Assembly (NCBI GenBank): GCA_947085565.1
Contig: CAMTWZ010000021.1
Span: 6,025 to 70,024, forward strand
Source: an uncultured Bacteroidota bacterium
Lineage (GTDB): Bacteria > Bacteroidota > Rhodothermia > Balneolales > HLUCCA01
Length of the DNA stretch: 64,000 bases
Direction of reading: 5' to 3'
The notes beneath the pieces are model-generated. The model was not told the origin of the DNA and did not search any database. It saw only the letters and a list, made by a program, of their open reading frames with translations. The position numbers were made by a program, and so were the translations under genes. Positions 366-39,587 of the stretch are shown here, piece after piece. How positions within the stretch are numbered: the first letter of the stretch is position 1; every line of letters starts with the position of its first letter.

Positions 366-3300
366 TGAGCGTCATTTTCCGCGTGAATGTGCCGGTCGGA
401 GTGGTCATGCGGTAGATGTACAAGCCGCTGGAAAGTCCGGTGGCGTCGAACTCTTCGAAATGGATGCCTGCGGGCATCTGGCGGTCAACCAAGGTGCGTA
501 CCAACTGACCTGATACCGTGTACACATCCATCCTCACATGCGTGTTCTCAGGCAGAGAATAACGGATCTGAGTGGTCGGATTGAACGGATTCGGATAGTT
601 GGCATCAAGAGAAATCTCATCCGGGAGTTCGTTCCCATCTTCGATACTTGTGGTTACCGATCGGTTGATCAGGAAATAGTTCAGACTATAGAGCCAATTC
701 TTCTTATCGGAGTCGGAATCGACTTCGAAACGGAGAATCCGTTTTCCTGCTTCCATCGGAACATTCAACACCGGAAACGCGGTCCAGTTCTGCCAACCGC
801 CCGTGCCACGGACCTGTCTTTTACCGCTCACATCCGCATTGTCAACGAGGATGCGGAAATTGCCGAAGCCGGGAACGGTAGTCATGTAGGGGATGATATC
901 GTACAAACCGGTGTTCGGGACATTGATGGTGTATTCGAGCCATTCACCGGCCACCATCCAGTACACGTCGAATCCGCCATCATTGGCGCCTTCGAGATCC
1001 ACGCCTTCGTTCGGACGGAAGGCCAGGCCGATGTTGTTGGCATCCACATCGTGATAGGCCACGCCTTCGCCGCCATTGTCGTAGCGCTCGGCTTCCAATC
1101 GGCCCGGCACATTGAACGGAGTTCCGGAAAATGGCGTGCCGTTCCCAAGAACGGTGACGGTCATGCGTTCGATGCTGATGAGTCCGGTGGTGTTGGTCAC
1201 GGTCAATGTCACTTGGTAGCTGCCTGGAGTGGTGTACACATGCGTAGGGTCGGGCAGGGCGGAGCTGTTACCGTCTCCGAAATTCCATGCGAAGCTGAGG
1301 GCTTCCTGGTTGGGATCGAAGCTCCGGCTGCCTGAGAAACGGATGGTCATCGGTGCTTTGCCATTGGACTTGTCGGAGACCAGCAGAACCACAGGTGCGT
1401 TCGGATTGGTTGAAATCAGGGTTTGCCAAGCCAATTTCCGTGGTGCGACATTCATCGAAAAGCCGTCGGAATACGTGACTTGAAGGGTTTCACCCGTCGG
1501 ATTGAACGCTACGTACGATTTCTCACCGGCGGCATTGCGGAAAACCGCGTACGTGGGGATCGATGCGGTGACCGTCGTATCCACGCGCCCCATTTTTTTC
1601 AAATTTCCAATCCAATGATAGGTATGAGCCTTGCTTTCACCGTCGAAAATGGGATAATTCGGATTGGCAAGAAAAGAGGAGAGCGCTTGGTCTGGATCGG
1701 CCAAGGCTTGGAATGCCCAAAGCACATCCTGCCAGATATTGGGCGGCCCAGAATTCTCTTTCACGATTTCGGCATAGTTGGCCAGAACGTAATCGGGATG
1801 TCGGCCCAGGTAGAGTGACCCGCCTGTGATCGGTAGGATGTTGATTCCATGGATGAATTCCGGATCCGCACCGAACCAAGTGGAATGGACTCCTTTCCCG
1901 CCCCAGACCATTCCGATGGCCACGTGAGGATAGCTGGCAGGGAAGACGGCGTTGTCCACATCGAACCAGTATTGCTCCACGGCGGTGCGTTCGGTCGAAT
2001 GTAGGAAAATGCCCAGGTCTCGCACTTCTTTCTGTCCGGTGACGGCTCCCCAAAGAACCACGGCTGATGCGAAGTGCATCGACTCGGAGCTGGATTCCTG
2101 GTTGTTTCCATCCCCGAAATCGCCATGTCCGGCGGCCCAGGAATGTCCTGCGTAGGAATCATGTCCGCGAAGGAAAGGGAAACGGGTGTCGCTGCGGTCC
2201 CAATTGTTGGAATCTTTGATGAGCAGGTTCACCATGGCTCCCCAACGCTCCTGTGCGGCCCATTCCTGATCGAATTGGGCGACGATGGCGGCGGCCATCA
2301 CTGCGTAACCGGAGTGGAAGCTGTGATCGTTGATCTGGTCATCGGCGCCATAACCCGATGGGTATCCGGTGAGCACATCCCAAGTGGCATTGTAAATGTA
2401 TTGCTGAGCTCCGCCGGCGGTGAGCCAATCTTCCAGTCGGGTTTTGAGTTTGGCCAGTAGCATGTCGCGTTCGGGAATGGCTCCGAGCTGGTCGGCGATG
2501 TTCACCAAACGGGCGAAACGTCCCATGGCTTTTCCGTTCTCATAACTCGGACCTGTTCCAAGCGGCTCATTGGCCACGGCGCGAACCATGGTCAGAAGAT
2601 CGGCACGGTTATAGGTTCCGAGATCCGGCATTCCGGGCAACACGCCGTCGAATCGCACATCGGTGGTGAACACATTTCCATCAAACACTTTCATCACACC
2701 TCGGGGCGACATATAGGTGTACGAAGTGAGCGGCGATGAGGTGTGAAGCCACTGGTGGCGGTACAATGCAGTAAGCGTGTTCGGAAGATTTCCGTTGATG
2801 TCCTCTTTCAGGGTCACATCATAGGTGAACGTGCTTCTCACATTCGCTGTCGCCTCGTCGTAAGACCATTCCACTCTGGATTCGGTGACAAAAGCGTACG
2901 CCCGTTTGCGGTAAAACTCGAGAGTGGCAGGGGTCGCATCCGGAAGCAGTGCGACAGAGAGGTAATCTTTGCCATTCAATGTTGATTGCAAAGCGGATGT
3001 TCCGGTCCAGACAGATCCGTGAGGCGCGAAAATGCCGTAATGCCGACCTGAAATCGTCATTCCGATCACACCATTCTGATTATGCCAGATCGTGGCAGAG
3101 GAGGAAGGAGTGATGAGGGCGTTTCCGCCGGTGATGTTGAAATACGCGTAGGGCAGGCCGTGACCGAACAAGGCTTTCATCCGCCGGTTTCCATCGATCC
3201 ACAATGCGGTGACGGTCCAATCGCTGTAATCATCGGTGAGGGTACGCGAGGCGTTGAGTCCGACGATACCCACGGTGAGCTGATTGGAGTAAGGATACAG

Positions 3301-3648
3301 GTAATCGTTGGCGGCGAAGACATGGTTGGGGGTGTAGCCCATATGGAGTCCGTTGCCGCGGGCTTTGAACAAAGCCGGATGAGCGTAAAGATTGTTCGAG
3401 TGCTGATCGTTGTAGAAGGTAAAGATCAGGCTGCTCCAAAAGTCGTTCGTCTGAACGGGTTTTGAAAACGTGGACGAAATCTTAGGTACGGCGTTGGCAC
3501 CATTGGCTTGCCGTGGGCCTACAGCCCCGAAGGGCAGCGTGGTTCCGTAACTGCCGCTACCGACAGGTACGGATTGTGAATGCAGCGTTCCGGCCGCGAG
3601 GAAGATGACCATTGAGGCGATCATCCAGGGATGTTGGGTGTGTCTCAT
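358..3648 (-). CDS. secreted GH81-type endo-beta-1,3-glucanase with PKD-like, CBM6-like and T9SS C-terminal sorting domains
   Basis: First ATG at 3648 gives the signal peptide MRHTQHPWMIASMVIFLAAGTLHS (the track ORF starts at a TTG at 3666). GH81-like signatures INDHSFHSGY and GNNQESSSES. PKD-like FAWNFGDGNSSALPDPTHVYTTPGSYQVTLTV. CBM6-like LEAERYDNGGEGVAYHD. C-terminal NYPNPFNPTTQIRYSL...TFTRKMTLIK. Confidence 0.8.
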   Translation of the reverse strand: MRHTQHPWMIASMVIFLAAGTLHSQSVPVGSGSYGTTLPFGAVGPRQANGANAVPKISSTFSKPVQTNDFWSSLIFTFYNDQHSNNLYAHPALFKARGNGLHMGYTPNHVFAANDYLYPYSNQLTVGIVGLNASRTLTDDYSDWTVTALWIDGNRRMKALFGHGLPYAYFNITGGNALITPSSSATIWHNQNGVIGMTISGRHYGIFAPHGSVWTGTSALQSTLNGKDYLSVALLPDATPATLEFYRKRAYAFVTESRVEWSYDEATANVRSTFTYDVTLKEDINGNLPNTLTALYRHQWLHTSSPLTSYTYMSPRGVMKVFDGNVFTTDVRFDGVLPGMPDLGTYNRADLLTMVRAVANEPLGTGPSYENGKAMGRFARLVNIADQLGAIPERDMLLAKLKTRLEDWLTAGGAQQYIYNATWDVLTGYPSGYGADDQINDHSFHSGYAVMAAAIVAQFDQEWAAQERWGAMVNLLIKDSNNWDRSDTRFPFLRGHDSYAGHSWAAGHGDFGDGNNQESSSESMHFASAVVLWGAVTGQKEVRDLGIFLHSTERTAVEQYWFDVDNAVFPASYPHVAIGMVWGGKGVHSTWFGADPEFIHGINILPITGGSLYLGRHPDYVLANYAEIVKENSGPPNIWQDVLWAFQALADPDQALSSFLANPNYPIFDGESKAHTYHWIGNLKKMGRVDTTVTASIPTYAVFRNAAGEKSYVAFNPTGETLQVTYSDGFSMNVAPRKLAWQTLISTNPNAPVVLLVSDKSNGKAPMTIRFSGSRSFDPNQEALSFAWNFGDGNSSALPDPTHVYTTPGSYQVTLTVTNTTGLISIERMTVTVLGNGTPFSGTPFNVPGRLEAERYDNGGEGVAYHDVDANNIGLAFRPNEGVDLEGANDGGFDVYWMVAGEWLEYTINVPNTGLYDIIPYMTTVPGFGNFRILVDNADVSGKRQVRGTGGWQNWTAFPVLNVPMEAGKRILRFEVDSDSDKKNWLYSLNYFLINRSVTTSIEDGNELPDEISLDANYPNPFNPTTQIRYSLPENTHVRMDVYTVSGQLVRTLVDRQMPAGIHFEEFDATGLSSGLYIYRMTTPTGTFTRKMTLIK

Positions 3649-4413: not shown

Positions 4414-5790
4414 TCAGCTTCGATTGCCAAGCCATTTGAGGACGATCCAAATCAAGGCCAGATATAAGGCCAAGGCGATGCCGATCGAGGCGAATCCGAG
4501 TTGGAGATTCTCGAAATGATTCACGGGCGCGTTGATGAGTACGAGAAGGGGAAAGCCGAGGGCGAGGGCGAGTCCGCTGCCATAGACCAGGTCATGACTC
4601 ACAGGCGATTTGAGCCTGGCGTCTAACACTCTGAGCAGTACCATAGCCGATTGCATGGTGCCTGTCATGTTTCCGAAGATGGCGACCAGTCGCTCAAGTT
4701 GGAAATCCTTGAATCCAGCACGGGTCAATTTGCGGATCACCCACCATGTTCCGGCGGTCACTCCGAGACTCATCAGCAGGATGGGGAGCCAATACGCGGT
4801 GACGACCGCGAAACTGATGGCCGCGACCGAAGCCACCACCATCACATCCATGAAAACGTTCGACAGTCGGGTCATGGTCGTGTCGTCGATCACTTCACCG
4901 GCACGGATGGAATCGATTCCTCTGCGCACTATCATCGCGATGATCGCCGCGATGATGAAGTGGAACGACCATAAGGTGCTGATCTCCTTTTCTCCGCCGC
5001 CCCAGATGAGCATATATGAAATGCCGTGCATTACGATCCATGTCAGCGCATACACCGCTCCGATGAGCCCGAAATGAAGACTGAGCGATTCGATCGCTTC
5101 CGGCGCTGTGGTCAAATAACCGGCGATCGGCTTGTGATTCCCTTTGATGATTCCGGTGCGCAATTCGGGCTCGGAAGTTCGGTCGCTATCGATGTAAGCG
5201 GCCTCTCCACGCCGGATACCGGTCCGAACCATTGCCAAACCGATGGTGTATGCCACGAGGAAGCCGATTGCGGCGAAGGTGAGTCCCACAACACCCCCAT
5301 CCTCAAAGCCAGAGGCTTCCCAATGATGACCGATGGTGTAGGCTATTCCCGGATTCATTCCGAAGGCGAGGGGCATCAGCAAGCCGATTCCAGGGAAAAG
5401 ATCCGGCATGAGGGTGAAAATCAATGCGAAAGCGATCAGAAGTCCGATCAATGCCTGAACCAGATAACTGGTGATGAAGATCAGTCCGAATCGGATGGAT
5501 GTGGACGCGCTGTTTTTTTCAGGCTTGCGAAGACTCAAACCGATGAACAGCAGCGCCAGCAAGTGATATACGTAAGCGCCTAGCCGTTCGGTGGATAGAC
5601 CGATCAGCTCGAGCCCGTTCATGCCGATGATCAATCCGATGACACCAGCGATCAGGTTGTTGGGCAGCAACTGGTCTTGGATCCAAGGAACAAAGCGCCT
5701 GAGCAGGGTGGCGATCACAAGGAGGACTCCGATCCAGGCCATGTCCATCATGACATCGCCCAAGGTGATCTGGAGGTCCCAAGCGCTCAT
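4414..5790 (-). CDS. polytopic membrane transporter, sodium/glutamate symporter (GltS)-like
   Basis: About 12 hydrophobic segments. Loose resemblance to E. coli GltS as I remember it (e.g. AIFGNMTGTMQSAM versus GHCGFGLGATPTAIANMQ). Start MSAWDL chosen because its ATG overlaps the upstream stop (ATGA at 5787-5790). Confidence 0.5.
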   Translation of the reverse strand: MSAWDLQITLGDVMMDMAWIGVLLVIATLLRRFVPWIQDQLLPNNLIAGVIGLIIGMNGLELIGLSTERLGAYVYHLLALLFIGLSLRKPEKNSASTSIRFGLIFITSYLVQALIGLLIAFALIFTLMPDLFPGIGLLMPLAFGMNPGIAYTIGHHWEASGFEDGGVVGLTFAAIGFLVAYTIGLAMVRTGIRRGEAAYIDSDRTSEPELRTGIIKGNHKPIAGYLTTAPEAIESLSLHFGLIGAVYALTWIVMHGISYMLIWGGGEKEISTLWSFHFIIAAIIAMIVRRGIDSIRAGEVIDDTTMTRLSNVFMDVMVVASVAAISFAVVTAYWLPILLMSLGVTAGTWWVIRKLTRAGFKDFQLERLVAIFGNMTGTMQSAMVLLRVLDARLKSPVSHDLVYGSGLALALGFPLLVLINAPVNHFENLQLGFASIGIALALYLALIWIVLKWLGNRS

Positions 5791-6980
5791 ATCGGGGTTT
5801 CGCCTTTCTGAAGCCGTCGAATGTAGATCTGCCAAGCCAAGGCGCTTCCTCCATCCAGATTGATCTGGATGGTGCCGCCTGATGATGGATACAGGCTAAG
5901 CTTATGGTTCTGCTCGATCGACATGTATTTGATGTCGGCCACCGGAACCTGATGTGAATCCCCATCCACAGACCAATTCACATGCTCTTCGGTGAGCGAC
6001 ATATGTCCGTGTGGAAGGGTGATCAGATTGTGCTTCTTATCGAGGGTGTACAATTTGCGGTCATGGGCTTCCAAAAGCGCACCGGTCTTCTTGTCTTTGA
6101 CCATGGGCAGGGTGTTCACCCCATCGAACACATCCAACAAGGAATGCTCGTTATGATGATCATCCACCAATCGCGAACAGGTATTCAACGTGAATTTGAA
6201 ATCGGGGGCGGTGCGGCTGCGGACTTCATGTCCGTCGGGTGAGTACACGGCACCGAGAACGCCGGTGACCGGACATCGGTACAGGAAGCGTTCGATTCCT
6301 GCTGCGGGCTTATAACTGATCACTGGCAGGGTTTCGGCTGGCGGGTTGTATTCCTCGAATCGGATGGCTTCACGAACCGCTTCCGCGAAGGTCTCGAAAT
6401 CCGCGAAATCACTGGTATGGAGGGGTTTCATCCAGCGGACTTCCATCGAATTCATGCGCGGGAAATTCGCCCAGCGCGGCCATGATAGAAACGAACCATG
6501 CAATTGGACCGGATGCACAGGCACATTCATCTTCCAGAAGAGTTTCATGGTCGATTCGATGAGTCCTTTGGGGCGACCATCCCAACGGCGGCCGCCTTCC
6601 GGAAAGATCACGATGCGTCGTTTTTGGTCCACCATTTTCATGACTGAGCGGATCACATGCGGCTCAGGCACATATTTGAGGGTGGGAACGATTCCGACCG
6701 AATCCATCGCCACGGCGGACACGAAATTGTGAAACTGTTCGCGGGTCATCACGCCTGCTGTAGGTTCATCGGAAAGCAACGTATTCAGGAAAAAAGGATC
6801 GCAGTAATTGGAATGGTTTCCGTAAATGAAACAGGCGCCATCTTTGGGCATGTTCTCACGACCGGTGACCCTCATATTGAAAAAAACGCGTGATGCGCCC
6901 ACCAGGAGATGGTGCAGGATCTTGCCTGTGACAGGATTGAAGCCTCGTTCATTCTTCTTGAACCTGAAATCTGAACTCAT
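5787..6980 (-). CDS. PlsC/lysophospholipid acyltransferase family protein with about 200-aa C-terminal extension
   Basis: HX4D box (YGNHSNYCDPF) and VIFPEGGRR motif. Start MSSDFRFKK lies at the ATGA overlap with the upstream gene (6977-6980). The longer track ORF extension runs inside the upstream CDS. Confidence 0.7.
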   Translation of the reverse strand: MSSDFRFKKNERGFNPVTGKILHHLLVGASRVFFNMRVTGRENMPKDGACFIYGNHSNYCDPFFLNTLLSDEPTAGVMTREQFHNFVSAVAMDSVGIVPTLKYVPEPHVIRSVMKMVDQKRRIVIFPEGGRRWDGRPKGLIESTMKLFWKMNVPVHPVQLHGSFLSWPRWANFPRMNSMEVRWMKPLHTSDFADFETFAEAVREAIRFEEYNPPAETLPVISYKPAAGIERFLYRCPVTGVLGAVYSPDGHEVRSRTAPDFKFTLNTCSRLVDDHHNEHSLLDVFDGVNTLPMVKDKKTGALLEAHDRKLYTLDKKHNLITLPHGHMSLTEEHVNWSVDGDSHQVPVADIKYMSIEQNHKLSLYPSSGGTIQINLDGGSALAWQIYIRRLQKGETPI

Positions 6981-8431
6981 AAAGACGATATGACATGATT
7001 TGCCGACAGGATGCAAAGTGGAATTCCTCCACCGGGATGGGTACTCCCACCCACAAGATAGAGACCTTTGACCAATGGTGATGCGTTGCGCGGCCGCAAA
7101 AATGCGGCGAGCCGGTTGTTGGATGAGGTTCCGTAAATACTGCCGCGGTTGGAACGATACCGTTCCTCGAATTCGGCTGGAGTGATCATTTTTTTCACAA
7201 CGATATGCTGGGCGATGGCTCCATCGAGTTTCAGCCGCAATTGCCGGATCAGATGATCGGAATAAGAGCCTTTCAGGGTTTCCCAATCCTGACCCGCCGT
7301 GTATGGCGCATTCACCAGGATGAAGAGGTTGGATCCGCCGGCTGGTGCGTGCTCTTTGTCAATGTAAGAGGTGTTCGCGATGTAGATGGTGGGATCGTCG
7401 GGAAGCTTTTTCCGCTTGAAAATGTCGTCGAATTCCTTTTTGTAATCGTCGGAAAACAGGATGTTGTGATGGGCGAGCTGCGGATAGGTCTTATCGAGAC
7501 CGAGCATGAGCACGAACCCGGAGCAGGAGGGTTCGATGGCGGAAAACGACGCTTTCTTGCGTGGAGTCACCACGGAATCGGACAATAAACGGGTATAGGT
7601 GTCGGTGGAGTCGGAATTGGATACGACGATGTCGAACGTTTCTCCATCCACACCTACGGCAACTCCGTTTTCCACATCGATGCGTTCCACGCTGCGGTTG
7701 AATTCGAAGATCACACCCAGGCTTGAAGCCAAGTTCCGCATAGCTTCCGCGACGCGGTACAGGCCGCCATTCACATAGAATCCGCCTTGCACGAGCTCCA
7801 CATAAGGAATCACGTTGAGCGTGGCAGGAGCGAGGTAAGGCGATGAACCGTTGTATGTGGTGAATCGCTTGAAAAACATGCGCATCTGTTCGCTTTTGAA
7901 CCATGAATCGACGCGGTCGCTCACGGTGGTGAAAGCGTCGATGCGCACCATGTCGAACAGATTCACATTCTTCAGATCCGAAAGCGTGCTGAGCTTGTTG
8001 AACAGAAAGGCATTGGCCGTGCGCTTATACAGTTTTTCGGAATAGCGCAAAAACCCCTCGTATGCGTCGGCATCATCTCCGGCGAAAGTCCTGATCGACG
8101 CCACGGTTTCCTGCACATCGTGGCTGCAATCGAAGACCGTGCCGTCCGGATACAGATACCTGCAGATCGGATGCAATGGCGACAGTTCCAGATAGTCTTC
8201 CAACCTCGCTCCGCAGTCTTCGAACAGTTTCTCCAACACGAAGGGCATGGTAAGCAGCGACGGACCCGTGTCCCAGCGGAAACCCTTCTCCGTGTACTCC
8301 GACATCTTCCCCCCAACGCGGTCGGTACGCTCCAGAACGGTGACCGAATACCCTCTTTTCGCCAGAAGACAGGAAACGGCCAATCCGCCGATTCCCGCTC
8401 CGATCACAACAGCTCGCATAGCGCAACGCAT
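6977..8431 (-). CDS. FAD-dependent oxidoreductase of the phytoene desaturase (CrtI/CrtD) family
   Basis: N-terminal dinucleotide fold MRAVVIGAGIGGLAVSCLLAKRGYSVTVLERTDRVGGK. C-terminal GLYLVGGSTHPGGGIPLCILSA, typical of the CrtI family. An alternative start is the ATG at 8419. Confidence 0.75.
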   Translation of the reverse strand: MRCAMRAVVIGAGIGGLAVSCLLAKRGYSVTVLERTDRVGGKMSEYTEKGFRWDTGPSLLTMPFVLEKLFEDCGARLEDYLELSPLHPICRYLYPDGTVFDCSHDVQETVASIRTFAGDDADAYEGFLRYSEKLYKRTANAFLFNKLSTLSDLKNVNLFDMVRIDAFTTVSDRVDSWFKSEQMRMFFKRFTTYNGSSPYLAPATLNVIPYVELVQGGFYVNGGLYRVAEAMRNLASSLGVIFEFNRSVERIDVENGVAVGVDGETFDIVVSNSDSTDTYTRLLSDSVVTPRKKASFSAIEPSCSGFVLMLGLDKTYPQLAHHNILFSDDYKKEFDDIFKRKKLPDDPTIYIANTSYIDKEHAPAGGSNLFILVNAPYTAGQDWETLKGSYSDHLIRQLRLKLDGAIAQHIVVKKMITPAEFEERYRSNRGSIYGTSSNNRLAAFLRPRNASPLVKGLYLVGGSTHPGGGIPLCILSANHVISSL

Positions 8432-20183: not shown

Positions 20184-20213
20184 GGTCCTTCGGGCCTTCG
20201 GCCCTCAGGATGA
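20184..20213 (-). repeat. copy (reverse orientation) of the TCATCCTGAG-hairpin-GAAGGACC element
   Basis: The reverse complement reads TCATCCTGAGGGCCGAAGGCCCGAAGGACC. Compare 21182-21212. Confidence 0.6.
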
Positions 20214-20257
20214 GGGCGCTGTGCTTGGTGAATTAGGTCCTTCGCAATACATAATGA

Positions 20258-20277
20258 CCCCAGGTTAAAACCTGGGG
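20258..20277. repeat. REP-like 20-nt palindrome
   Basis: CCCCAGGTT-AA-AACCTGGGG. Confidence 0.6.
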
Positions 20278-20347
20278 CTAGAATTTACTCTCGATTACGA
20301 AGTCGTACTTCTCGAAATGTCGTGCCATTCGGTATGCTGACATCTAG

Positions 20348-20367
20348 CCCCCGGTTTAAACCGGGGG
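20348..20367. repeat. REP-like 20-nt palindrome
   Basis: CCCCCGGTTTAAACCGGGGG. Confidence 0.6.
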
Positions 20368-20376
20368 TTGTAGATT

Positions 20377-20799
20377 TTAGGCGAATGGATTGATGATTCG
20401 CAAGCCATCTATGCTTTGCCCGTGTTGCAAATCTTCTGAATACAGTACGGAGCAACCTGATTCAAGTGCGGACGCGATGATCAATGAATCATAAAACGAA
20501 TATGACCATCTCTCTTGGATATCGAGAGCTTTGATGGTCAATCCCAGGCTCGAGTTTAATTGCCACATCGGAGACATGATGGACTCGACATACATTCTGG
20601 CGTCACTGTGTTTCAATGGTTTGCTGAACTTTTTGGTAGCGACATTCACAAACTCCTGAACCACTTGATAACTGATTCGAGCCGTAGTTGCTTCAGATGT
20701 CTTGTGAATCAGATCCAGAGCCACATCGCGTTTTCTCGAATCTCGGAGATCGAAGGAGTACACGAAGATATTCGTGTCTAAGAAAACTTTAGCGCTCAT
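20377..20799 (-). CDS. vapC: PIN-domain toxin (VapC family)
   Basis: VFLDTNIFVYSFD N-terminal PIN acidic motif. 140 aa. Overlaps the upstream small gene by 11 nt. Confidence 0.8.
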   Translation of the reverse strand: MSAKVFLDTNIFVYSFDLRDSRKRDVALDLIHKTSEATTARISYQVVQEFVNVATKKFSKPLKHSDARMYVESIMSPMWQLNSSLGLTIKALDIQERWSYSFYDSLIIASALESGCSVLYSEDLQHGQSIDGLRIINPFA

Positions 20800-21007
20800 T
20801 CATGTCATCCCGGGTGAAAGAACGTCCAGCTTCTGCATAAGAAAGTCGCTCCATGACCTCATTTAGACTCATTTTAGTCGATCCCGATGACGCGTAGCTC
20901 GACAGCCACTCTCTGAACTTTTCATTCAGAGTAGTCTTCTCCGTCATCGCTTTCAGTCGAGCTTGTTGGATGAGGGATTCTTCGGCACTAAAGGTGATGT
21001 TTTTCAT
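20789..21007 (-). CDS. putative antitoxin (VapB-like) of the PIN toxin
   Basis: 72 aa from the internal ATG (MKNITFSAEESLIQQARLKA...). Position and overlap with vapC support the call. The longer track ORF starts at a TTG inside repeat DNA. Confidence 0.55.
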   Translation of the reverse strand: MKNITFSAEESLIQQARLKAMTEKTTLNEKFREWLSSYASSGSTKMSLNEVMERLSYAEAGRSFTRDDMNER

Positions 21008-21133
21008 ATCGCACAATTTTCGTGTACACGAGTTTCGTGTAATGTACGTGGTAGAAGTGAAAAAGAAAAGGATGTGAGCACGGGTCCTACGCTTCCCCTT
21101 CGCGTTGCTCAGGGTAAAGCTCAGGACCAATGA

Positions 21134-21153
21134 CCCCCACCTTAAGGTGGGGG
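21134..21153. repeat. REP-like 20-nt palindrome
   Basis: CCCCCACCTTAAGGTGGGGG. Confidence 0.6.
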
Positions 21154-21181
21154 TTAGTGGAAGATCCCCGAATAGGGCGCT

Positions 21182-21212
21182 GTCATCCTGAGCCGCGAAG
21201 CGGCGAAGGACC
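21182..21212 (+). repeat. copy (forward orientation) of the TCATCCTGAG-hairpin-GAAGGACC element
   Basis: GTCATCCTGAGCCGCGAAGCGGCGAAGGACC, inverted relative to 20184-20213. Confidence 0.6.
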
Positions 21213-21265
21213 TAATCCCGCGATACCTCTCGAACCTACAGGCCTTTCGAAGTGCAGCCCTCTAA

Positions 21266-21285
21266 CCCCCGGTTTTAACCGGGGG
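21266..21285. repeat. REP-like 20-nt palindrome
   Basis: CCCCCGGTT-TT-AACCGGGGG. Confidence 0.6.
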
Positions 21286-21325
21286 TTGTTACGAATGAGT
21301 ATTTCCATTTGCTTTGAAATCTCTT

Positions 21326-21487
21326 TATAATTGCATCTAATGAACCCGATCAACATCATCAGCCCAACCCGCACCGAGAGGACCAAACGGACTCCGTCAG
21401 CGAAGGCTATGTCTTGAAGTAGGGAACAACCACATTCAATAAAGGCAGGATCTTCGCGGATTCTGCCTTTTTTTTTGCCCAACGCCC
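21326..21487 (+). promoter_or_regulatory. putative arginine leader-peptide attenuator, copy 1 (upstream of argG)
   Basis: 25-codon ORF 21340-21417 (MNPINIISPTRTERTKRTPSAKAMS) has Arg codons CGC, AGG and CGG within 7 codons. Segment 21400-21415 can pair with 21442-21457, which competes with terminator stem 21444-21452/21459-21467. A T9 run ends 11 nt before the argG ATG. TATAATTG at 21326-21333 resembles a Bacteroidetes -7 box. Confidence 0.65.
21441..21476 (+). terminator. intrinsic terminator of attenuator copy 1
   Basis: GGCAGGATC, loop TTCGCG, GATTCTGCC (9 bp including one GU), followed by TTTTTTTTT. Confidence 0.75.
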
Positions 21488-22690
21488 ATGTCATCACCCA
21501 TCATACTTGCCTATAGCGGAGGTCTGGACACCAGCTTCTGCATTCCTTACTTGAACGAAACCCACGGCGCGCCGGTGCATGCGGTCACGGTCGATTGCTC
21601 GGGCCTGTCGCCCGACGCGCTATCCGCCCTCGAAACCAAAGCCTTGGCCTACGGCGCGGCATCGTTCACTGCCATCGACGGCACACAAAGCATGTACACC
21701 GACATCCTGAGCTGGCTGATCCGCGGCAATGTGCTACGCGACCGCACCTATCCGCTGTGCGTAGGTGCCGAGCGGTTCATCCAGGCCGAAAAGGTCGTCG
21801 GGCATGCCAAATCCATCGGCGCCACGCGCATCGCCCATGGCTCAACCGGGGCCGGCAACGATCAGGTGCGATTCGATGTGGCGCTGCGCACCTTGCTTCC
21901 GGGCGTGGAGATCCTCACACCAATCCGTGATTTGCGTCTCACCCGGGCCTTCACCACGCAGTACTTGCGCGACCGCGGCTTCGAAGTCTCCGACAAAACC
22001 ACCCAGTATTCGATCAACGACGGACTCTGGGGCACCACCATCGGCGGAAAAGAAACCACGACCTCCGAGCAGGCGCTTCCGTTCGACGCCTTCCCGCATC
22101 TCAAAAACCCCGCGACATTCACAGAGCCCGCGGAAACGCTGACGATCGGGTTCGAACTCGGACTTCCGGTAAGCCTGAACGGCCAAGCGCTGGATTCCAT
22201 CCCGCTTTTGCAAGCCGTCCTAGACATCGGCCGGAAGCATGGCATCGGTCGGGGTATGCACTTGGGCGACACCATATTGGGCATCAAAGGTCGGATCGGG
22301 TTCGAAGCGCCGGTCGCCACCATCCTGTATGCCGCACACAAGGAATTGGAAAAACTCACGCTCACCAAATGGCAGCGCCACATCAAAGACCAATTGGGCG
22401 ACACCTACGGCATGTTGCTGCACGAAGGGCAGTATTTCGATCCCGTGATGCGCGACATCGAAGCGTTCTTGGAGCACTCGCAGCGCACGGTGACTGGCAC
22501 CGTGGATCTACACATCGGCAACGGGCAGGTGTTTCCGCTCGGGGCCGAATCCCCATTCAGTCTGATGAATTCGTCCATCGCCAAATACGGCGAAGAATCG
22601 AGCGGATGGACGGGTGAAGAGGCCCGCGCGTTCTCCAAGCTTCACGGAATGGCCACACAAATCGCTTATCAGGTTCAGAACCCGAAATAA
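21488..22690 (+). CDS. argG: argininosuccinate synthase
   Basis: AYSGGLDTS and HGSTGAGNDQVRF signatures. 400 aa. Confidence 0.95.
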   Translation: MSSPIILAYSGGLDTSFCIPYLNETHGAPVHAVTVDCSGLSPDALSALETKALAYGAASFTAIDGTQSMYTDILSWLIRGNVLRDRTYPLCVGAERFIQAEKVVGHAKSIGATRIAHGSTGAGNDQVRFDVALRTLLPGVEILTPIRDLRLTRAFTTQYLRDRGFEVSDKTTQYSINDGLWGTTIGGKETTTSEQALPFDAFPHLKNPATFTEPAETLTIGFELGLPVSLNGQALDSIPLLQAVLDIGRKHGIGRGMHLGDTILGIKGRIGFEAPVATILYAAHKELEKLTLTKWQRHIKDQLGDTYGMLLHEGQYFDPVMRDIEAFLEHSQRTVTGTVDLHIGNGQVFPLGAESPFSLMNSSIAKYGEESSGWTGEEARAFSKLHGMATQIAYQVQNPK

Positions 22691-22708
22691 ATGTGAACTA
22701 CATGTGAG

Positions 22709-23311
22709 CTACAGAGAATGGAAGATCGAATCATCCAGAAGAGTCTCAAGCTCGATAAGCCCAACCTTTCGAACAACGATATGTTCAGATTCAATCTGTG
22801 GGGTTTGTCTAAGTCTACCATAAGGCAGTTTTTGTGTAGAGTAGATTCGCTTCGCTATAATCACTTGAGGTGAGGCAGCATTGTGTGGATGATCCCAATG
22901 CTGCCAAAAATAACGCTGCAGTGCAATATTCGACAGAGAATTGCCAACAGAGATTTCATCGAATTCACTAAAAGAGGATAGGTATTTTAAACCATCAGAA
23001 ACCGAGTTTTCGATCGTTATACCAACAGAGTTGAATCGGTAACCCCGCTTATTCGATTCAATACGGTATCTATCTAAAGCTGAGGATAGTATGTCAGGTA
23101 ATTTAGACTCTTTGGATGAACTGCAAGTGGAGCTTCCAATAAATATTAGAACAATTTCATTCGCATCCGCAAAGGGATCTGCACCCTGAGTCTCATTAGA
23201 AGAACTTTGTGAAGTTGGCGACGAGAAGTTAATTGTCAAAAAGTGTGCGATGAAAAAAGCTAAAATCACAATTGATGCGTTTCGAGCATATACATACAAA
23301 TCAATTTTCAT
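22709..23311 (-). CDS. membrane-anchored hypothetical protein, possible thioredoxin-like fold with CxxS (AT-rich island)
   Basis: Start MKIDLYVYARNASIVILAFFIAHFL (N-terminal TM). VLIFIGSSTCSSS and the later SPQVIIAKR follow the order of the Trx-fold beta1-CxxC and cis-Pro elements. This is pattern-level only. Confidence 0.5.
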   Translation of the reverse strand: MKIDLYVYARNASIVILAFFIAHFLTINFSSPTSQSSSNETQGADPFADANEIVLIFIGSSTCSSSKESKLPDILSSALDRYRIESNKRGYRFNSVGITIENSVSDGLKYLSSFSEFDEISVGNSLSNIALQRYFWQHWDHPHNAASPQVIIAKRIYSTQKLPYGRLRQTPQIESEHIVVRKVGLIELETLLDDSIFHSL

Positions 23312-24521
23312 GAACCATAATAAGTGTAGGTTGAGGGTATGGAGATACAAACGTGATGGCTATATTTGACTTTAGAACCCCAATACGAGCAAAATCATGG
23401 GTATAGGTTAATTCTCCGGAATTGGTGTCTACTAGGATAGTATTAATGGAGTTATTATTGAGTGTCAAATTCTTTTTCTTGGCAAAAAAGTCTTGAGGTA
23501 ATCGATTCACAAATTGCAAAACTGAAAAAGTTCCTATGTCGGTTCTAGGGGTTGGGAGTTTGTGATGTAAGATGTCGGAATTTGTGTAAGAATAGAATGA
23601 AGGTCCTTCCGATGTCATCTCTTCCGTGAATTCAGTGCTTATGTAGCCATCTATTTTTGATATCCATTTTTGATTTCCATCTGTATCGTAACCAAAAATA
23701 TATGGGAAGTGACTAGGATAGCCTACAACAGTTTTTGTTTCATAATTGCAACTTATAAGCGTTTCTGACATTCTGCTGTTCAAAAAACCCCAGCCAGATT
23801 CAGAATTGTATGAGTAGCCAAAGGAAAAAGACGGATTTTGATTCGTCAGATCGAGTCGAAGAATCGGTGCTGTCGATCTGGCTTCACCTTGCTTCTTAAT
23901 TCCTTTGGAAACTGACTCAACATCATCTCGGATAATTCTGTGTCCACTAATGTACAAGTATGAATCGATTATGCAAATGTCAGTTGTTCGAATGATATCC
24001 AATAAGATTGTTTTGTGGTATTCAAATTTTAGATTGTTCCTAGTAAATACTTCGACTTTGTTGTAATCCAAGACATACAGCGACTCGTACTCTTTATCGA
24101 AAACAAAGGAATGGATGCGGAAAAATTCTCCAGGCCCGCGTCCAGCACGCCCAATCTCATATAAGTATGACCCGTATTTATCATAGACATTGATAGTGTT
24201 CCCATGATTTTGAACGATGTAAATATGACCTGTTAGATCGATGTCCATTTTGGGCGGAATACCATCAAAACTTAACTTTCTGGAGAAAATCGAGTCTTTT
24301 CCTATAACTGTAATCGGAGTGGATTCTAGTAAATAGGAAAATGTGTTGCGATAAACCACAGATGGATTTCGGATATCCAATCTGTGGTTTATCTCGTTAA
24401 CTTTTGGAAACTGCGAGTGATCCGGATGTGAAAACTTTCCAGATTTTCCACAACCCATAGCGATCATCCACAATAGAAGACTGGCAACTGTAGATGGACA
24501 AATATTCCTCATCAGTTTCAC
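23301..24521 (-). CDS. lipoprotein, 6-bladed beta-propeller family (GPGEF motif; BF3164/NHL-like)
   Basis: Lipobox MIAMGC. GRAGRGPGEFFRIHSF is the hallmark motif of the Bacteroides 6-bladed beta-propeller family as I recall it. Repeated beta-rich segments. Confidence 0.65.
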   Translation of the reverse strand: MKLMRNICPSTVASLLLWMIAMGCGKSGKFSHPDHSQFPKVNEINHRLDIRNPSVVYRNTFSYLLESTPITVIGKDSIFSRKLSFDGIPPKMDIDLTGHIYIVQNHGNTINVYDKYGSYLYEIGRAGRGPGEFFRIHSFVFDKEYESLYVLDYNKVEVFTRNNLKFEYHKTILLDIIRTTDICIIDSYLYISGHRIIRDDVESVSKGIKKQGEARSTAPILRLDLTNQNPSFSFGYSYNSESGWGFLNSRMSETLISCNYETKTVVGYPSHFPYIFGYDTDGNQKWISKIDGYISTEFTEEMTSEGPSFYSYTNSDILHHKLPTPRTDIGTFSVLQFVNRLPQDFFAKKKNLTLNNNSINTILVDTNSGELTYTHDFARIGVLKSNIAITFVSPYPQPTLIMVHEN

Positions 24522-24528
24522 TTATGAT

Positions 24529-24738
24529 TTAGGAACAGGGTACTCCACCACACTGTGCCCCATTATTGCCACCGCACTCACCGTATCCCATTGTGTAATC
24601 ACAAAATCCGTTTTTAACGTCAGGGTTGGAGAAGTTGCAGAGGCCACATGGTCCTAATGCACTGGCTCGATTATTCGAACCGGTAAAAATTCCAATTGCT
24701 ATCGCAATGGTAACAACTACAGCTAATTTTCTATTCAT
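24529..24738 (-). CDS. 69-aa Cys/Gly-rich secreted peptide precursor
   Basis: MNRK + LAVVVTIAIAIGIFTG + SNNRASA, then a 42-aa core with 6 Cys and 10 Gly (LGPCGLCNFSNPDVKNGFCDYTMGYGECGGNNGAQCGGVPCS). Ends 7 nt upstream of the propeller gene start. Confidence 0.6.
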   Translation of the reverse strand: MNRKLAVVVTIAIAIGIFTGSNNRASALGPCGLCNFSNPDVKNGFCDYTMGYGECGGNNGAQCGGVPCS

Positions 24739-24947
24739 ATGACTAGGTTTAAAAGGTTATTGAAACTACTCTGACTTTATAAAAAAAAAAGTTCTATTGC
24801 AACACGTCGACTCAACTATTTTTGACAAAAGAGGACCTGTGAAAAAAACATTTACAACTGAACATATGTGTAGGCTGAGGAACTCTTGACCAATAGTTAA
24901 GTTCAGCTGGAAAAAAATCCGCATTTCCATTTCCCTTCAAAAAGATT

Positions 24948-25106
24948 TATTATTGGGGATGTTCAACAAACTAGCACAAAGCCTCACCCGCACCGAGAGG
25001 ACCAAACGGACTCCGTCAGCGAAGGCTATGCCTTGAAGTAGGGAACAACCACATTCAATAAAGGCAGGATCTTCGCGGATTCTGCCTTTTTTTTTGATAA
25101 CCACCC
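24948..25106 (+). promoter_or_regulatory. putative arginine leader-peptide attenuator, copy 2 (upstream of the arg operon)
   Basis: 25-codon ORF 24959-25036 (MFNKLAQSLTRTERTKRTPSAKAMP). Positions 24986-25095 are 109/110 identical to 21367-21476. Antiterminator 25019-25034 : 25061-25076 (12 WC + 2 GU + 2 mismatches). Terminator 25063-25071/25078-25086 plus T9. ATG of the next gene 11 nt later. TATTATTG at 24948-24955. Confidence 0.65.
25060..25095 (+). terminator. intrinsic terminator of attenuator copy 2
   Basis: Same hairpin plus T9 as 21441-21476. Confidence 0.75.
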
Positions 25107-26177
25107 ATGACCATCGCACTCGAAACCATCACCGCCGACATCATCGCATCCAGTTCCGGATCGGTCAAGCTCACGAACCCCATCACATTGGCGAAAAATG
25201 TGGTGGCGCAGGAGGGATATTTGGTCGCAGTGCGCACGCTCGACGACAAAGACACCTACAACAAGCTCGAAATCACAACAGGGGAGTTCGTGACCTACGG
25301 TCCGGGTAAGATCGTGATCGGCGCTTTGGGCGAACGCCAGGCGTTGCGAGGCTACAGTGGCGTGATTCCACGTTCCGTGAAAGCGGGCGACATCCTGCAT
25401 ATTCTGAACATGGGTGGCATCATCGGGACGTGCCAATCGCCGCATCCGGATTTTGGTCCGGCGATGCGGGTGGAAGTCCTCGGTGCCGTGATGGTGAACG
25501 ACGATGGACACATGAAGCACGCCTGCATCCAAGATCACGCCATCGACTGGGTGTATTCTCTCGAAGCGACCGCGCCGTTGATCGGCGTGACCGGAACCGC
25601 GATGAATGTGGGAAAAACCATGGCCGCTTCGCAGATCGTGAAACATCTGGCGGACAAAGGATATAAAGTCGGTGCTGTGAAACTCACCGGTGCCTCGCTC
25701 ATGCGCGATGTGCGTTCGATGATGGATCAAGGCGCCGCGTTCTGCACCCATTTCTCGGAAGCCGGACTCGTCTCCACCACCGGAAAAAACATCCTTCCCA
25801 TGGCCAAGGGACTCATCCATCACCTGAATTCACTGAAGCCAGATGTGATTGTGATGGAATTCGGGGATGGGATCATTGGTCCGTATGGGGTGGATAGCTT
25901 GCTGATGGACAAGGAAATCCAGCGCAACATCACTTGTCATGTCGTGGCTGCGCAAGATTTCATGGGATGTTGGGCGGCGGATAACTTCTTCCGGAAGCGG
26001 TACAACCGGGACATTCACATTTTCACGGGTCCGGTGACCGATAACCTGGTCGGCATCCAGTTCATTCAGAACACGATGGGCATCCGCGCGGTGAATGCCG
26101 TCGCCGATTCGGCCACACTTGGCGCTTGGGTCGAAGAAATCGCGTTCAAGAAGCCACAGACGGAGGATTTCTTGTGA
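25107..26177 (+). CDS. uncharacterised P-loop (BioD/DUF1611-like GTxxxVGKT) protein, first gene of the arg operon
   Basis: 356 aa. GVTGTAMNVGKTMAASQIVKHLADKGYKVGAVKLTG and VIVMEFGDGIIGPYG resemble the deviant Walker A and the EGQG-type segment of DUF1611/dethiobiotin-synthetase-like folds. Translationally coupled to argC (GTGA at 26174-26177). Confidence 0.75.
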   Translation: MTIALETITADIIASSSGSVKLTNPITLAKNVVAQEGYLVAVRTLDDKDTYNKLEITTGEFVTYGPGKIVIGALGERQALRGYSGVIPRSVKAGDILHILNMGGIIGTCQSPHPDFGPAMRVEVLGAVMVNDDGHMKHACIQDHAIDWVYSLEATAPLIGVTGTAMNVGKTMAASQIVKHLADKGYKVGAVKLTGASLMRDVRSMMDQGAAFCTHFSEAGLVSTTGKNILPMAKGLIHHLNSLKPDVIVMEFGDGIIGPYGVDSLLMDKEIQRNITCHVVAAQDFMGCWAADNFFRKRYNRDIHIFTGPVTDNLVGIQFIQNTMGIRAVNAVADSATLGAWVEEIAFKKPQTEDFL

Positions 26178-39505: not shown

Positions 39506-39587
39506 GCCGGCGTGGCGGAACTGGTAGACGCGCACGACTCAAAATCGTGTTCTTCACTGAGTGCCGGTTCGATTCCGGCCGCCGGTA
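39506..39587 (+). tRNA. tRNA-Leu (anticodon CAA)
   Basis: Acceptor GCCGGCG/CGCCGGT. D-arm GGCGGAACTGGTAGACGC is nearly identical to E. coli tRNA-Leu. Anticodon stem CACGA/TCGTG with loop CTCAAAA. Long variable arm. T-arm GCCGGTTCGATTCCGGC. CCA is not encoded. Confidence 0.9.

Follow-up and report, generated by a model that had tools for sequence, protein, structure and literature searches.

An AT-rich island at the stop codon of argG carries a recurrent trio of genes for a six-cysteine peptide, a β-propeller lipoprotein and a candidate monothiol thioredoxin-like protein

Introduction

What is a block of AT-rich DNA doing at the end of argG, and what could its three genes do together? The question is raised by a stretch of 64,000 nucleotides (hereafter the window) of contig CAMTWZ010000021.1, from an uncultured Bacteroidota bacterium of the order Balneolales, where an island separates argG from the rest of the arginine (arg) operon. 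The island encodes, on the minus strand, a small cysteine-rich peptide, a β-propeller lipoprotein and a membrane-anchored thioredoxin-like (Trx-like) protein. An original prediction, made from the letters of the DNA, had seen in them an uncharacterised module of peptide, propeller and redox partner, a proposal that is now supported by the recurrence of the same trio at other loci and by the folds of its products. Altogether, we lean towards a horizontally acquired three-gene envelope operon, which would produce a Sec-exported disulfide mini-protein, its cognate propeller and a monothiol redox helper. The subject touches the fields of envelope redox biology, Bacteroidota lipoproteins and the discovery of bacteriocins and of ribosomally synthesised peptides that are modified after translation (RiPPs). 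In this regard, propellers of the DUF5128 type are abundant and multi-copy in Bacteroidota and have no assigned function, and neither Pfam nor NCBIfam includes the family of the Trx-like protein, which counts at least 1090 clusters when grouped at 50% identity.

A compositionally foreign island behind argG

The sharp compositional break between argG and the arg operon had been deduced from hand counts of G and C in four lines of 60 nt (20/60 and 16/60 inside the island, 37/60 and 35/60 in its flanks), all of which were exact on recount, and the break itself was borne out by windowed GC, by GC at third codon positions (GC3) and by tetranucleotides. The segment 22700-24958 has a GC content of 38.4%, against 55.1% in the remaining window, which is the minimum among all windows of 2259 nt (5th percentile 50.7%, median 55.0%). 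Sliding windows of 300 nt fall from 54-64% GC to 35-40% between ~22650 and 25000, and no 1-kb window below 45% GC exists outside 22501-25250 in the whole 64 kb. In the same line, tetranucleotide usage departs most from that of the window as a whole at 22751 (robust z 14.6; the correlation with the window signature is 0.03), the island being the sole strong outlier of this kind within the 64 kb. The genes of the island, all three, have GC3 values of 0.34-0.37, compared with 0.62-0.75 in argG, argX, argC, argD and queG. By every one of these measures the composition of the island is foreign (coordinates in Table 1).

The left flank is argG itself, and to the right we find an open reading frame (ORF) of 356 aa (argX), followed by argC, argD, argF' (OTCase-type), argB, argE (M20 deacylase) and argH. 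A lack of adjacent mobility genes had been noted from the start, and indeed neither integrase nor transposase was found among the ORFs checked against Pfam within ~5 kb on each side, while the only tRNA of the window lies at 39506, 15 kb from the island. The right end had been placed at the second copy of an attenuator-like repeat; such a repeat is real (~130 nt at 94% identity), and it corresponds to a duplicated promoter and leader, not to an att-type site. Searches of plasmids (with tblastn) and of viral contigs gave no relatives of either the propeller or the Trx-like protein, and identified no vector. Propeller relatives in named genomes come from Balneolales, Balneolaceae and Gracilimonas metagenome-assembled genomes (MAGs), whereas close relatives of the housekeeping proteins of the window come from Bacteroidota MAGs.

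As to the point of insertion, ArgG of the window ends in ...YQVQNPK (400 aa), and its relatives at 90% identity or more end in ...YQVQNP, ...NS or ...HP (399 aa), which would therefore place the left junction at the native argG stop codon. Moreover, among the 90%-identity clusters of ArgG and ArgX relatives there are two pairs with equal longest contigs, of 2950 nt (both proteins full-length) and 2509 nt. If the members of each pair share a contig, these contigs are too short for an insert of 2.2 kb, and close relatives would then probably lack the island. A low GC content is not restricted to this example: genes of the module lie 7-13 GC points below their surroundings in three further loci whose flanks are well sampled (41.7% against 54-55% in locus L001, 43% against 48-51% in L011, and 56-58% against 68-69% in L014).

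Table 1. Coordinates of the features of the island and its surroundings, followed by the gene content of related loci
Feature	Position	Strand	Basis or content
AT-rich compositional island, ~2.2 kb, from argG stop to arg-operon promoter/leader	22685..24915		GC, GC3, tetranucleotides
69-aa precursor of a small exported six-Cys protein	24529..24738	-	ORF; homologous peptides at the same position elsewhere
Predicted Sec signal peptide, residues 1-27 (MNRKLAVVVTIAIAIGIFTGSNNRASA), A-S-A cleavage site	24658..24738	-	read from sequence
Predicted mature core (LGPCGLCNFSNPDVKNGFCDYTMGYGECGGNNGAQCGGVPCS), 42 aa, six Cys, Gly-rich	24532..24657	-	alignments
406-aa β-propeller lipoprotein, DUF5128/NHL type	23301..24521	-	Pfam, model, Foldseek
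Lipobox Cys24 (...IAMGC)	24450..24452	-	invariant
GRGPGEF motif, residues 127-133	24123..24143	-	NHL-repeat signature
200-aa N-terminally anchored thioredoxin-fold protein	22709..23311	-	model, Foldseek, phmmer family
C-S-S-S motif, Cys63-Ser66, candidate monothiol CxxS active site where helix 1 begins	23114..23125	-
Pro148, candidate cis-proline loop (S-P-Q-V-I-I)	22868..22870	-	invariant in 61/61
Intergenic region, 177 nt, 33% GC, probable site of the island-operon promoter, which would diverge from that of the arg operon	24739..24915	.
argG	21488-22690		Pfam Arginosuc_synth
First copy of promoter/leader, upstream of argG ATG	21294-21490	+
Promoter-like block and structured leader with terminator ('attenuator copy 2')	24916..25109	+	direct repeats, alignment, fold
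Related locus L002			80-aa peptide, propeller, overlapping Trx-like gene
Related loci L004-L007			AraC-type regulator, 83-aa peptide, propeller, Trx-like gene
Related locus L010			propeller C-terminus directly before Trx-like gene
Related loci L014-L016			64% GC; two peptides, propeller, Trx-like gene, S26 signal peptidase, second propeller
Related locus L018			32% GC; AraC-type regulator, 108-aa peptide, propeller, Trx-like gene
Related loci L020/L021			TARA ocean contigs; 87-aa peptide, propeller, overlapping Trx-like gene with CPFC
Related locus L022			Acidobacteria MAG; propeller, Trx-like gene, MacB-like permease, DsbA-like protein; no peptide recognised

Three coupled genes and their products

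ORF calls agreed with the three tightly packed minus-strand genes originally described. They are packed like an operon, with a gap of 7 nt between peptide and propeller genes and an overlap of 11 nt where the propeller gene ends and the Trx-like gene starts with its ATG. In the spacer that precedes the peptide gene, a sigma-70-like match on the minus strand (TTCACA-17-AATAGT, 24843-24815, a consensus match only) points to divergent promoters for the island and the arg operon. None of the three island proteins matched the anti-phage defence models of PADLOC. At the other end, argG and the convergent Trx-like gene are just 18 nt apart (22691-22708) with no terminator-like hairpin between them, and their transcripts are therefore expected to overlap as antisense RNA.

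The peptide precursor starts with a basic n-region (MNRK), continues with a hydrophobic run of 17 residues and, after ...NNRASA, enters a core in which six cysteines are found; its predicted signal-peptide cleavage site is an AxA site read from the sequence. This is the single ORF of such a type in the window. A word-based homologue search matched only the peptide itself, and its relatives were found solely by inspecting the neighbours of propeller homologues. In this way, L002, L004 and L013 were seen to encode homologous peptides at the equivalent place. The invariants of the alignment are C-G-x-C, F-C, C-x-x-N-x-G-x-x-C and the last C; position, signal peptide and all six cysteines are kept at an overall identity of 26-31%. 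Moreover, the number of cysteines past the hydrophobic segment is even (6 or 8) in all nine related peptides, which suggests three disulfides in the core of the window peptide. Neither this peptide nor the four related ones tested matched Pfam or NCBIfam at E values up to 10, and they would seem to belong to no described family; a profile of the core against the PDB returned noise (fibronectin, E ~1). The original prediction had also pointed to the small NVEALA peptides as possible kin, and this part found no support: there is no match to the corresponding hidden Markov model (PF14055), nor any NVEALA-like motif in the window peptide. The leaders in L004, L018 and L013 end in ...ALASGNT or ...LEASVFA, which only resemble the NVEALA motif, and the link appears to be just a likeness of layout and, loosely, of these leader endings.

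The second product was proposed to be a lipoprotein of the 6-bladed propeller family with a GRGPGEF motif, a proposal that a well-characterised unrelated function would have countered; the assignment stands, and no such function turned up among its nearest structures. It scores 52 bits with DUF5128 (PF17170), where the cut-off is 22.9 (E=8e-14), the match spanning only profile positions 54-146 of 321, and all five close homologues found in a word-indexed database (P0003-P0007) carry PF17170 as well. The GRGPGEF motif lies in the one canonical NHL repeat of the protein. Translation would start at a GTG (24521) or at an alternative ATG (24512) that gives the 403-aa product on record. The lipobox ...LLLWMIAMGC, read from the sequence, covers residues 15-24, and its cysteine is invariant in 16/16 aligned propellers. 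An AlphaFold2 model is all-β, with a mean predicted local distance difference test (pLDDT) of 73.5 and a predicted template-modelling score (pTM) of 0.79. Its top Foldseek match is 4raa (BF0058; E=2.3e-9, template-modelling (TM) score 0.49/0.55), which the propeller profile also finds by sequence (E=3e-7), and 3s9j (BVU_1028, of the related DUF4221) is likewise one of its best matches; both are uncharacterised Bacteroides proteins. Literature searches for DUF5128 (PF17170), NVEALA, DUF4221 and BF3164 found nothing relevant. A pair of cysteines, Cys183 and Cys258, is present in 14 of the 16 propellers and lost jointly in the two most divergent ones, as would be expected if the two residues formed a disulfide within the protein or acted as a redox pair.

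The third product gave no matches in Pfam or NCBIfam and, in a word-based homologue search, matched itself only. A phmmer search against 1.84 billion representatives revealed 1090 clusters at E<=1e-3, of which 287 reach E<=1e-10, and their members are with few exceptions 185-215 aa long; those in MAGs assigned to Acidobacteria and Halanaerobiales are labelled 'hypothetical protein'. Thioredoxin_8 of Pfam matches weakly 11 of the 61 relatives that we aligned (best E 1.1e-4), and one relative (P0077) reaches 15.8 bits with Thioredoxin_2, below the cut-off of 27. In the alignment only Cys63, Gly97, Gly123 and Pro148 are invariant, and its consensus reads LIYIGSSTCxxxN ... FDEISxGNxWxN ... ATPQ. 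The AlphaFold2 model built from it (pLDDT 90.6) comprises a transmembrane helix (residues 5-29), a low-confidence linker and a β(51-59)-α-β-α ... β-β-α domain, and all the top 50 Foldseek matches in the PDB have a thioredoxin fold (DsbE/TlpA-like, ResA, tryparedoxin, Bacteroides thiol-disulfide oxidoreductases and Sco), with 3gl3 as the best one (E=1.9e-4, TM score 0.40/0.54, a modest similarity). The thioredoxin fold with CxxS that had been guessed from the order of motifs is thus supported by model, structure matches and an invariant first cysteine. In the model, Cys63 directly precedes helix 64-67 and Pro148 directly precedes strand 149-161, the predicted positions of the nucleophilic cysteine and of the cis-proline loop of the fold. 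As far as the model tells, the protein is a member of a large unnamed family with a TlpA/ResA-type fold.

A detailed view of the active-site candidate shows C-S-S-S in the window protein, where the CxxC of a dithiol site is absent. Among the best 150 relatives there are 83 with CxxS, 16 with CxxC and ~19 whose fourth position holds a residue other than Ser or Cys, which makes the window motif, to judge from these counts, the majority and monothiol form of the family. An extra cysteine three residues upstream occurs in 27 of the same 150, five of these with CxxS too. Two other candidates were rejected as chance: a cytotoxic necrotizing factor deamidase domain (E=0.004), given by a three-sequence profile and not reproduced by the 61-sequence one, and equally weak matches of the latter to RIG-I.

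Recurrence of the trio at other loci

A homologous propeller gene lies directly upstream of the Trx-like gene at 8/8 independent loci with context, and one or two genes for secretory peptides with 6 or 8 cysteines precede the propeller at 6/7 loci with enough DNA. Co-occurrence outside the window, on which the module idea depended, was thus found for the whole trio in L002, L004/5, L014, L018 and L020, and for propeller plus Trx-like protein also in L010 and L022; the synteny is conserved. The eight loci range from 32% to 64% GC and include Balneolales-like contigs as well as contigs of an Acidobacteria MAG. All these propellers, including those with no Pfam match, are homologous to the one in the window (local profile search, E from 1e-190 to 7e-7), and the overlap of the 11-nt type between propeller and Trx-like genes recurs in L002, L005 and L020.

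On the other hand, propeller genes alone or in arrays are found in L001, L003, L008, L011 (four paralogues) and L012. When the propeller-retrieved loci are taken together with the window, a Trx-like gene accompanies 3/4 of those with a peptide versus 0/5 of those without one (Fisher p ~0.05, with small numbers), and therefore the Trx-like gene tracks the peptide and not the propeller as such.

Peptides and propellers seem to behave as matched cassettes. The leaders in L004 and L018 are 74% identical (…SINGTDFSLAGAMALASGNT…), whereas their cores share 21% identity (6 versus 8 Cys), their propellers 27% and their Trx-like proteins 33%. An even clearer example is L013 (396-3740, from a Gracilimonas MAG), with two tandem peptide-propeller pairs, where the 58-aa leaders (MKERFAK.GNKTK...LLGLEASVFAPTAVAT) are 93% identical, while the cores are 29% and the propellers 23% identical. 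Here the first core falls in the 6-Cys family of the window peptide (C-G-x-C ... F-C ... C-x-x-N-x-G-x-x-C ... C), and the second propeller (350 aa) is devoid of the conserved pair of cysteines and gave no match with the subfamily profile. Peptide core and propeller co-vary in these alignments, and constant leaders with variable cores, each core with a propeller of its own, argue that the propeller is a core-specific partner.

Other genes at these loci are worth describing. In L014, two tandem genes for 6-Cys peptides (2901-3134 and 3198-3452) are found, a gene for a signal peptidase I of the S26 family (5773-6357) directly follows the Trx-like gene, and a second DUF5128 propeller (6398-7519) lies on the opposite strand; the presence of the peptidase gene supports that the peptides may be exported by Sec and cut by a signal peptidase. 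At L022 (6585-10408), a sigma-54 activator comes before the pair of propeller and Trx-like genes, and after the pair we find an FtsX permease of the MacB type (793 aa) and a DsbA-like protein; the genes that follow could be an extension of the module for export and oxidation. The arrays in Balneolales MAGs (L011, 3437-8475, and L012, 22-3934) contain three to four paralogous DUF5128-type propellers with no adjacent peptide or Trx-like gene, and these propellers share an N-terminal H-P-x5-P motif just past the lipobox. Finally, an ORF directly upstream of the propeller in L008 (1-180) ends in ...DCGCFGG... followed by a transmembrane segment, and looks like the C-terminus of a membrane oxidase of the MauE/DoxX type with a CXC motif, a family for which the capacity to take the place of DsbB was recently shown. 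A further redox gene would thus adjoin this propeller family.

A proposed role for the module and its alternatives

How could the three products work together? From the order of the genes and the features of their sequences, we propose that the 69-aa product is exported by Sec and cut after A-S-A, which would release a Gly-rich mini-protein of 42 aa whose six cysteines would form three disulfides in the periplasm. The co-translated 200-aa protein would be held in the membrane by its single N-terminal helix with the thioredoxin domain facing the periplasm. In this domain only one cysteine (CxxS) and the cis-proline are invariant, and therefore it cannot store a disulfide as DsbA does. Most likely, it would form a mixed disulfide with the peptide and act as an isomerase, proof-reader or holdase, as the CxxS-type relatives of protein disulfide isomerase (PDI) do. 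The propeller, whose pairing with the peptide is observed, would be the core-specific partner that binds it, and its most likely task would be self-protection or handling (immunity- or chaperone-like) for a secreted antagonistic or signalling peptide. We infer both the mixed-disulfide role and the specific binding of the peptide by the propeller; a toxin and immunity role of the module is plausible. Finally, the module would have inserted exactly at the stop codon of argG, upstream of a duplicated promoter and leader that would now drive the rest of the arg operon.

Several observations weigh against such a proposal. The module has no outer-membrane exporter through which the peptide would be released from the cell, and no relative of the peptide with a known function was detectable by word-based, Pfam/NCBIfam or PDB profile searches. 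The propeller, with its 400 aa, is unusually large as an immunity protein, and its own conserved pair of cysteines could be the real client of the Trx-like protein. Besides, the closest propellers (52-53% identity, in L001 and L011) have neither peptide nor Trx-like gene beside them, and multi-copy arrays with no peptides mean that a propeller can work without one adjacent. The peptides in L013 have no Trx-like gene, and the Trx-like gene in L022 has no recognisable peptide. The neighbourhood survey comprises only eight independent loci, a small census because the genome scan gave three loci and the metagenome scan a single one of 1 kb.

The alternative that survives best, which we regard as unlikely, keeps the mini-protein bound to the propeller as a disulfide-knotted subunit, possibly of an enzyme, with the Trx-like protein as its maturation factor. 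The tight coupling of the three genes fits a stoichiometric synthesis, core and propeller change jointly and the module has no outer-membrane exporter; the MauE-like C-terminus directly upstream of a family propeller in L008 would also find its place. Nevertheless, the mature core of the window peptide contains no Trp, which makes a cofactor of the tryptophan tryptophylquinone (TTQ) type impossible and rules out that of methylamine dehydrogenase (MADH), and the propeller is of the 6-bladed NHL/DUF5128 type and not of the 7-bladed MauB type. Nor does a fixed subunit agree with the closest propellers lacking an adjacent peptide, or with the conserved leaders, hypervariable cores and several peptide genes of L014 and L013, which resemble diversifying secreted peptides.

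It is less probable still that the Trx-like protein serves as redox partner of Cys183 and Cys258 in the propeller, with the peptide gene as an independent neighbour. Its gene always comes directly after that of the propeller, overlapping or abutting it, even in the peptide-less L022, and the joint conservation and loss of the two cysteines together with the precedents discussed below (PMC4460558) speak in the same direction. Against this, at least six propellers that possess the two cysteines stand without a Trx-like gene beside them (two in L001, and those in L003, L008, L012 and the first of L013, L013a), the Trx-like gene appears among propeller-retrieved loci only where a peptide gene does, and a monothiol CxxS cannot serve as a dithiol oxidase of the DsbL type.

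A role in metal handling is very doubtful. Here the peptide, rich in Cys, Gly, Asp and Asn, would bind a metal such as copper, in the manner of metallothioneins or bufferins, the Trx-like protein would be a metallochaperone of the Sco type and the propeller would be the metal-dependent acceptor, an idea encouraged by Sco1/SCO-family structures at Foldseek ranks 16, 25, 31 and 33 and by the CxxC and CGGN(D/N)G motifs of the peptide. However, the Trx-like protein lacks the signature of Sco proteins, CxxxC plus a distal His, and has one invariant cysteine only; even cysteine counts with variable spacing across unrelated cores fit disulfides better than a fixed metal site, and no metal transporter or regulator is found at any of the loci. 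That the island is inert passenger DNA, a decaying remnant of transfer in which the small ORF is no gene, is hardly credible: its strongly foreign composition and lack of mobility genes would fit, but the three frames are intact and translationally coupled, the small ORF has kept its position, signal peptide and six cysteines at the low identity given above, and the larger products have kept their hallmarks, namely the catalytic-site residues in the Trx-like protein and the lipobox and NHL motif in the propeller.

If the preferred reading, a mini-protein handled by its own propeller and redox helper, is extended beyond the window, the trio would represent an unrecognised and widespread class of Sec-dependent disulfide-knotted effectors (toxins or signals) of Bacteroidota/Balneolales-like and other uncultured bacteria, with propellers, one for each variable core, as immunity proteins or receptors and monothiol CxxS proteins of thioredoxin fold as isomerases. 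We put forward this generalization as a tentative one, for which the odds are rather against. If true, both the DUF5128 propellers and a Trx-like family exceeding 1000 clusters would gain a first function. Such loci would be missed by bacteriocin and RiPP miners because they have no ABC (ATP-binding cassette)/C39 exporter, radical-SAM enzyme or known precursor family, and a possible reservoir of small disulfide-rich peptides may have been overlooked in this way. In any case, the linkage of the trio across genomes of 32%-64% GC offers a testable hypothesis for both families, and a monothiol active site is relevant to the envelope redox biology of lineages with poorly known disulfide machinery.

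The duplicated leader and neighbouring elements

The repeat at the right border of the island has its other copy directly 5' of the argG ATG, the border copy being 5' of the first gene of the arg operon. It includes a core of 115 nt with one difference, plus a promoter-like block of 40 nt. The leader ends at its 3' side in a 13-bp terminator hairpin with a run of nine T, ~10 nt before the start codon, and its folding is far below that of shuffled controls (z -3.65); it matches no Rfam family. It is a possible candidate for an attenuator or riboswitch that responds to arginine. Once the island had separated argG from the operon, regulated expression may have been recovered through the duplication, and an insertion at the argG stop beside a duplicated promoter and leader offers an example of an operon tolerating foreign DNA.

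The first gene behind the border copy (25107-26177, plus strand) encodes the 356-aa ArgX, which shows sub-threshold hints of P-loop type (DUF1611_C, MobB and BioD-like) and is kept at 90% identity or more in relatives, where it is labelled 'hypothetical protein'. It might replace a missing step of arginine synthesis such as the acetyltransferase. On the other side of argG, GC-rich palindromes of the repetitive extragenic palindromic (REP) type (CCCCCGGTTTAAACCGGGGG and variants) and a direct repeat of 66 nt occupy 20184-20371 and 21133-21296. Together they bracket a PIN-domain toxin gene (20377-20799) with its small upstream partner (20789-21130), which suggests that this toxin-antitoxin pair is itself an inserted cassette.

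Comparison with known systems

Propellers of the DUF5128 type often adjoin small peptides of the NVEALA family in Bacteroidota. The island propeller has in common with DUF5128 proteins the PF17170 match, the lipobox, the GRGPGEF repeat of NHL type and 4raa as best structure, and the layout, with a small ORF upstream of the propeller, is that of the NVEALA pairs. One difference is the third gene, as the Bacteroides arrangement is not known to include a Trx-like protein.

As for the peptide, the heat-stable toxin STa of Escherichia coli is a pre-pro-peptide of 72 aa with six cysteines that relies on the general DsbA and on TolC-dependent export. The likeness is of architecture only, namely a ~70-aa precursor that begins with a Sec signal and ends in a 6-Cys core oxidised in the periplasm, as predicted for the island peptide; sequence similarity is lacking, and STa is not known to have either a propeller or a dedicated Trx-like partner.

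The same three-part logic of propeller, small multi-disulfide protein and membrane-associated Trx-like protein is found in the MADH cluster, with MauB as its propeller heavy subunit, MauA as its Cys-rich light subunit and MauD as its Trx-like protein. The island nonetheless encodes a peptide of ~40 and not ~130 aa, with no Trp, a 6-bladed NHL propeller and no mauG-like or other mau genes. MauE, whose likeness lies by the propeller in L008, is a DsbB-like CXC oxidase tied to the maturation of the MADH small subunit (bioRxiv 10.64898/2026.03.05.709764).

Periplasmic propellers have been linked to dedicated redox proteins before. DsbL and DsbI of uropathogenic E. coli serve the propeller enzyme AssT, and DsbI of Campylobacter and Helicobacter bears a propeller domain itself (PMC4460558). 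The genetic tie between a periplasmic β-propeller and its own Trx-family protein is shared with the island, but DsbL/DsbI is a dithiol oxidase with a quinone-linked partner of DsbB type, whereas the Trx-like protein of the island is monothiol and no DsbB/DsbI-like gene accompanies it. A similar balance is obtained with TlpA, ResA and DsbE (CcmG), which show the same single N-terminal anchor, thioredoxin fold, cysteine at helix 1 and proline before strand 3. The island family differs from them in being mostly monothiol (CxxS or CxxA), in a block of its own (FDEIS-GN-W-N...Y-W) and in its partners, a propeller and a Cys-rich peptide instead of cytochrome c maturation.

A precedent for the proposed role comes from the bacteroidetocins (class IIf), whose loci encode a dedicated thiol oxidoreductase needed for full toxin activity in hosts that are said to lack general disulfide machinery (PMC6671954), and in view of it a redox-helper role of the Trx-like protein is reasonable. 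As in the island, a small secreted Cys peptide of 42 aa in its mature form is encoded beside a thiol oxidoreductase. Bacteroidetocins use, however, a double-glycine leader, an ABC exporter with a C39 peptidase and a 5-TM protein, and have four cysteines, whereas the island combines a Sec-type AxA leader, 6-8 cysteines counting its relatives and a propeller lipoprotein, with no sequence similarity between both systems. No ABC transporter is found in the island or in seven of the eight related loci, L022 having the MacB-type permease. That a Cys-rich peptide is secreted and has a redox helper of its own is a known theme, to which the island would add a propeller lipoprotein as an obligatory partner.

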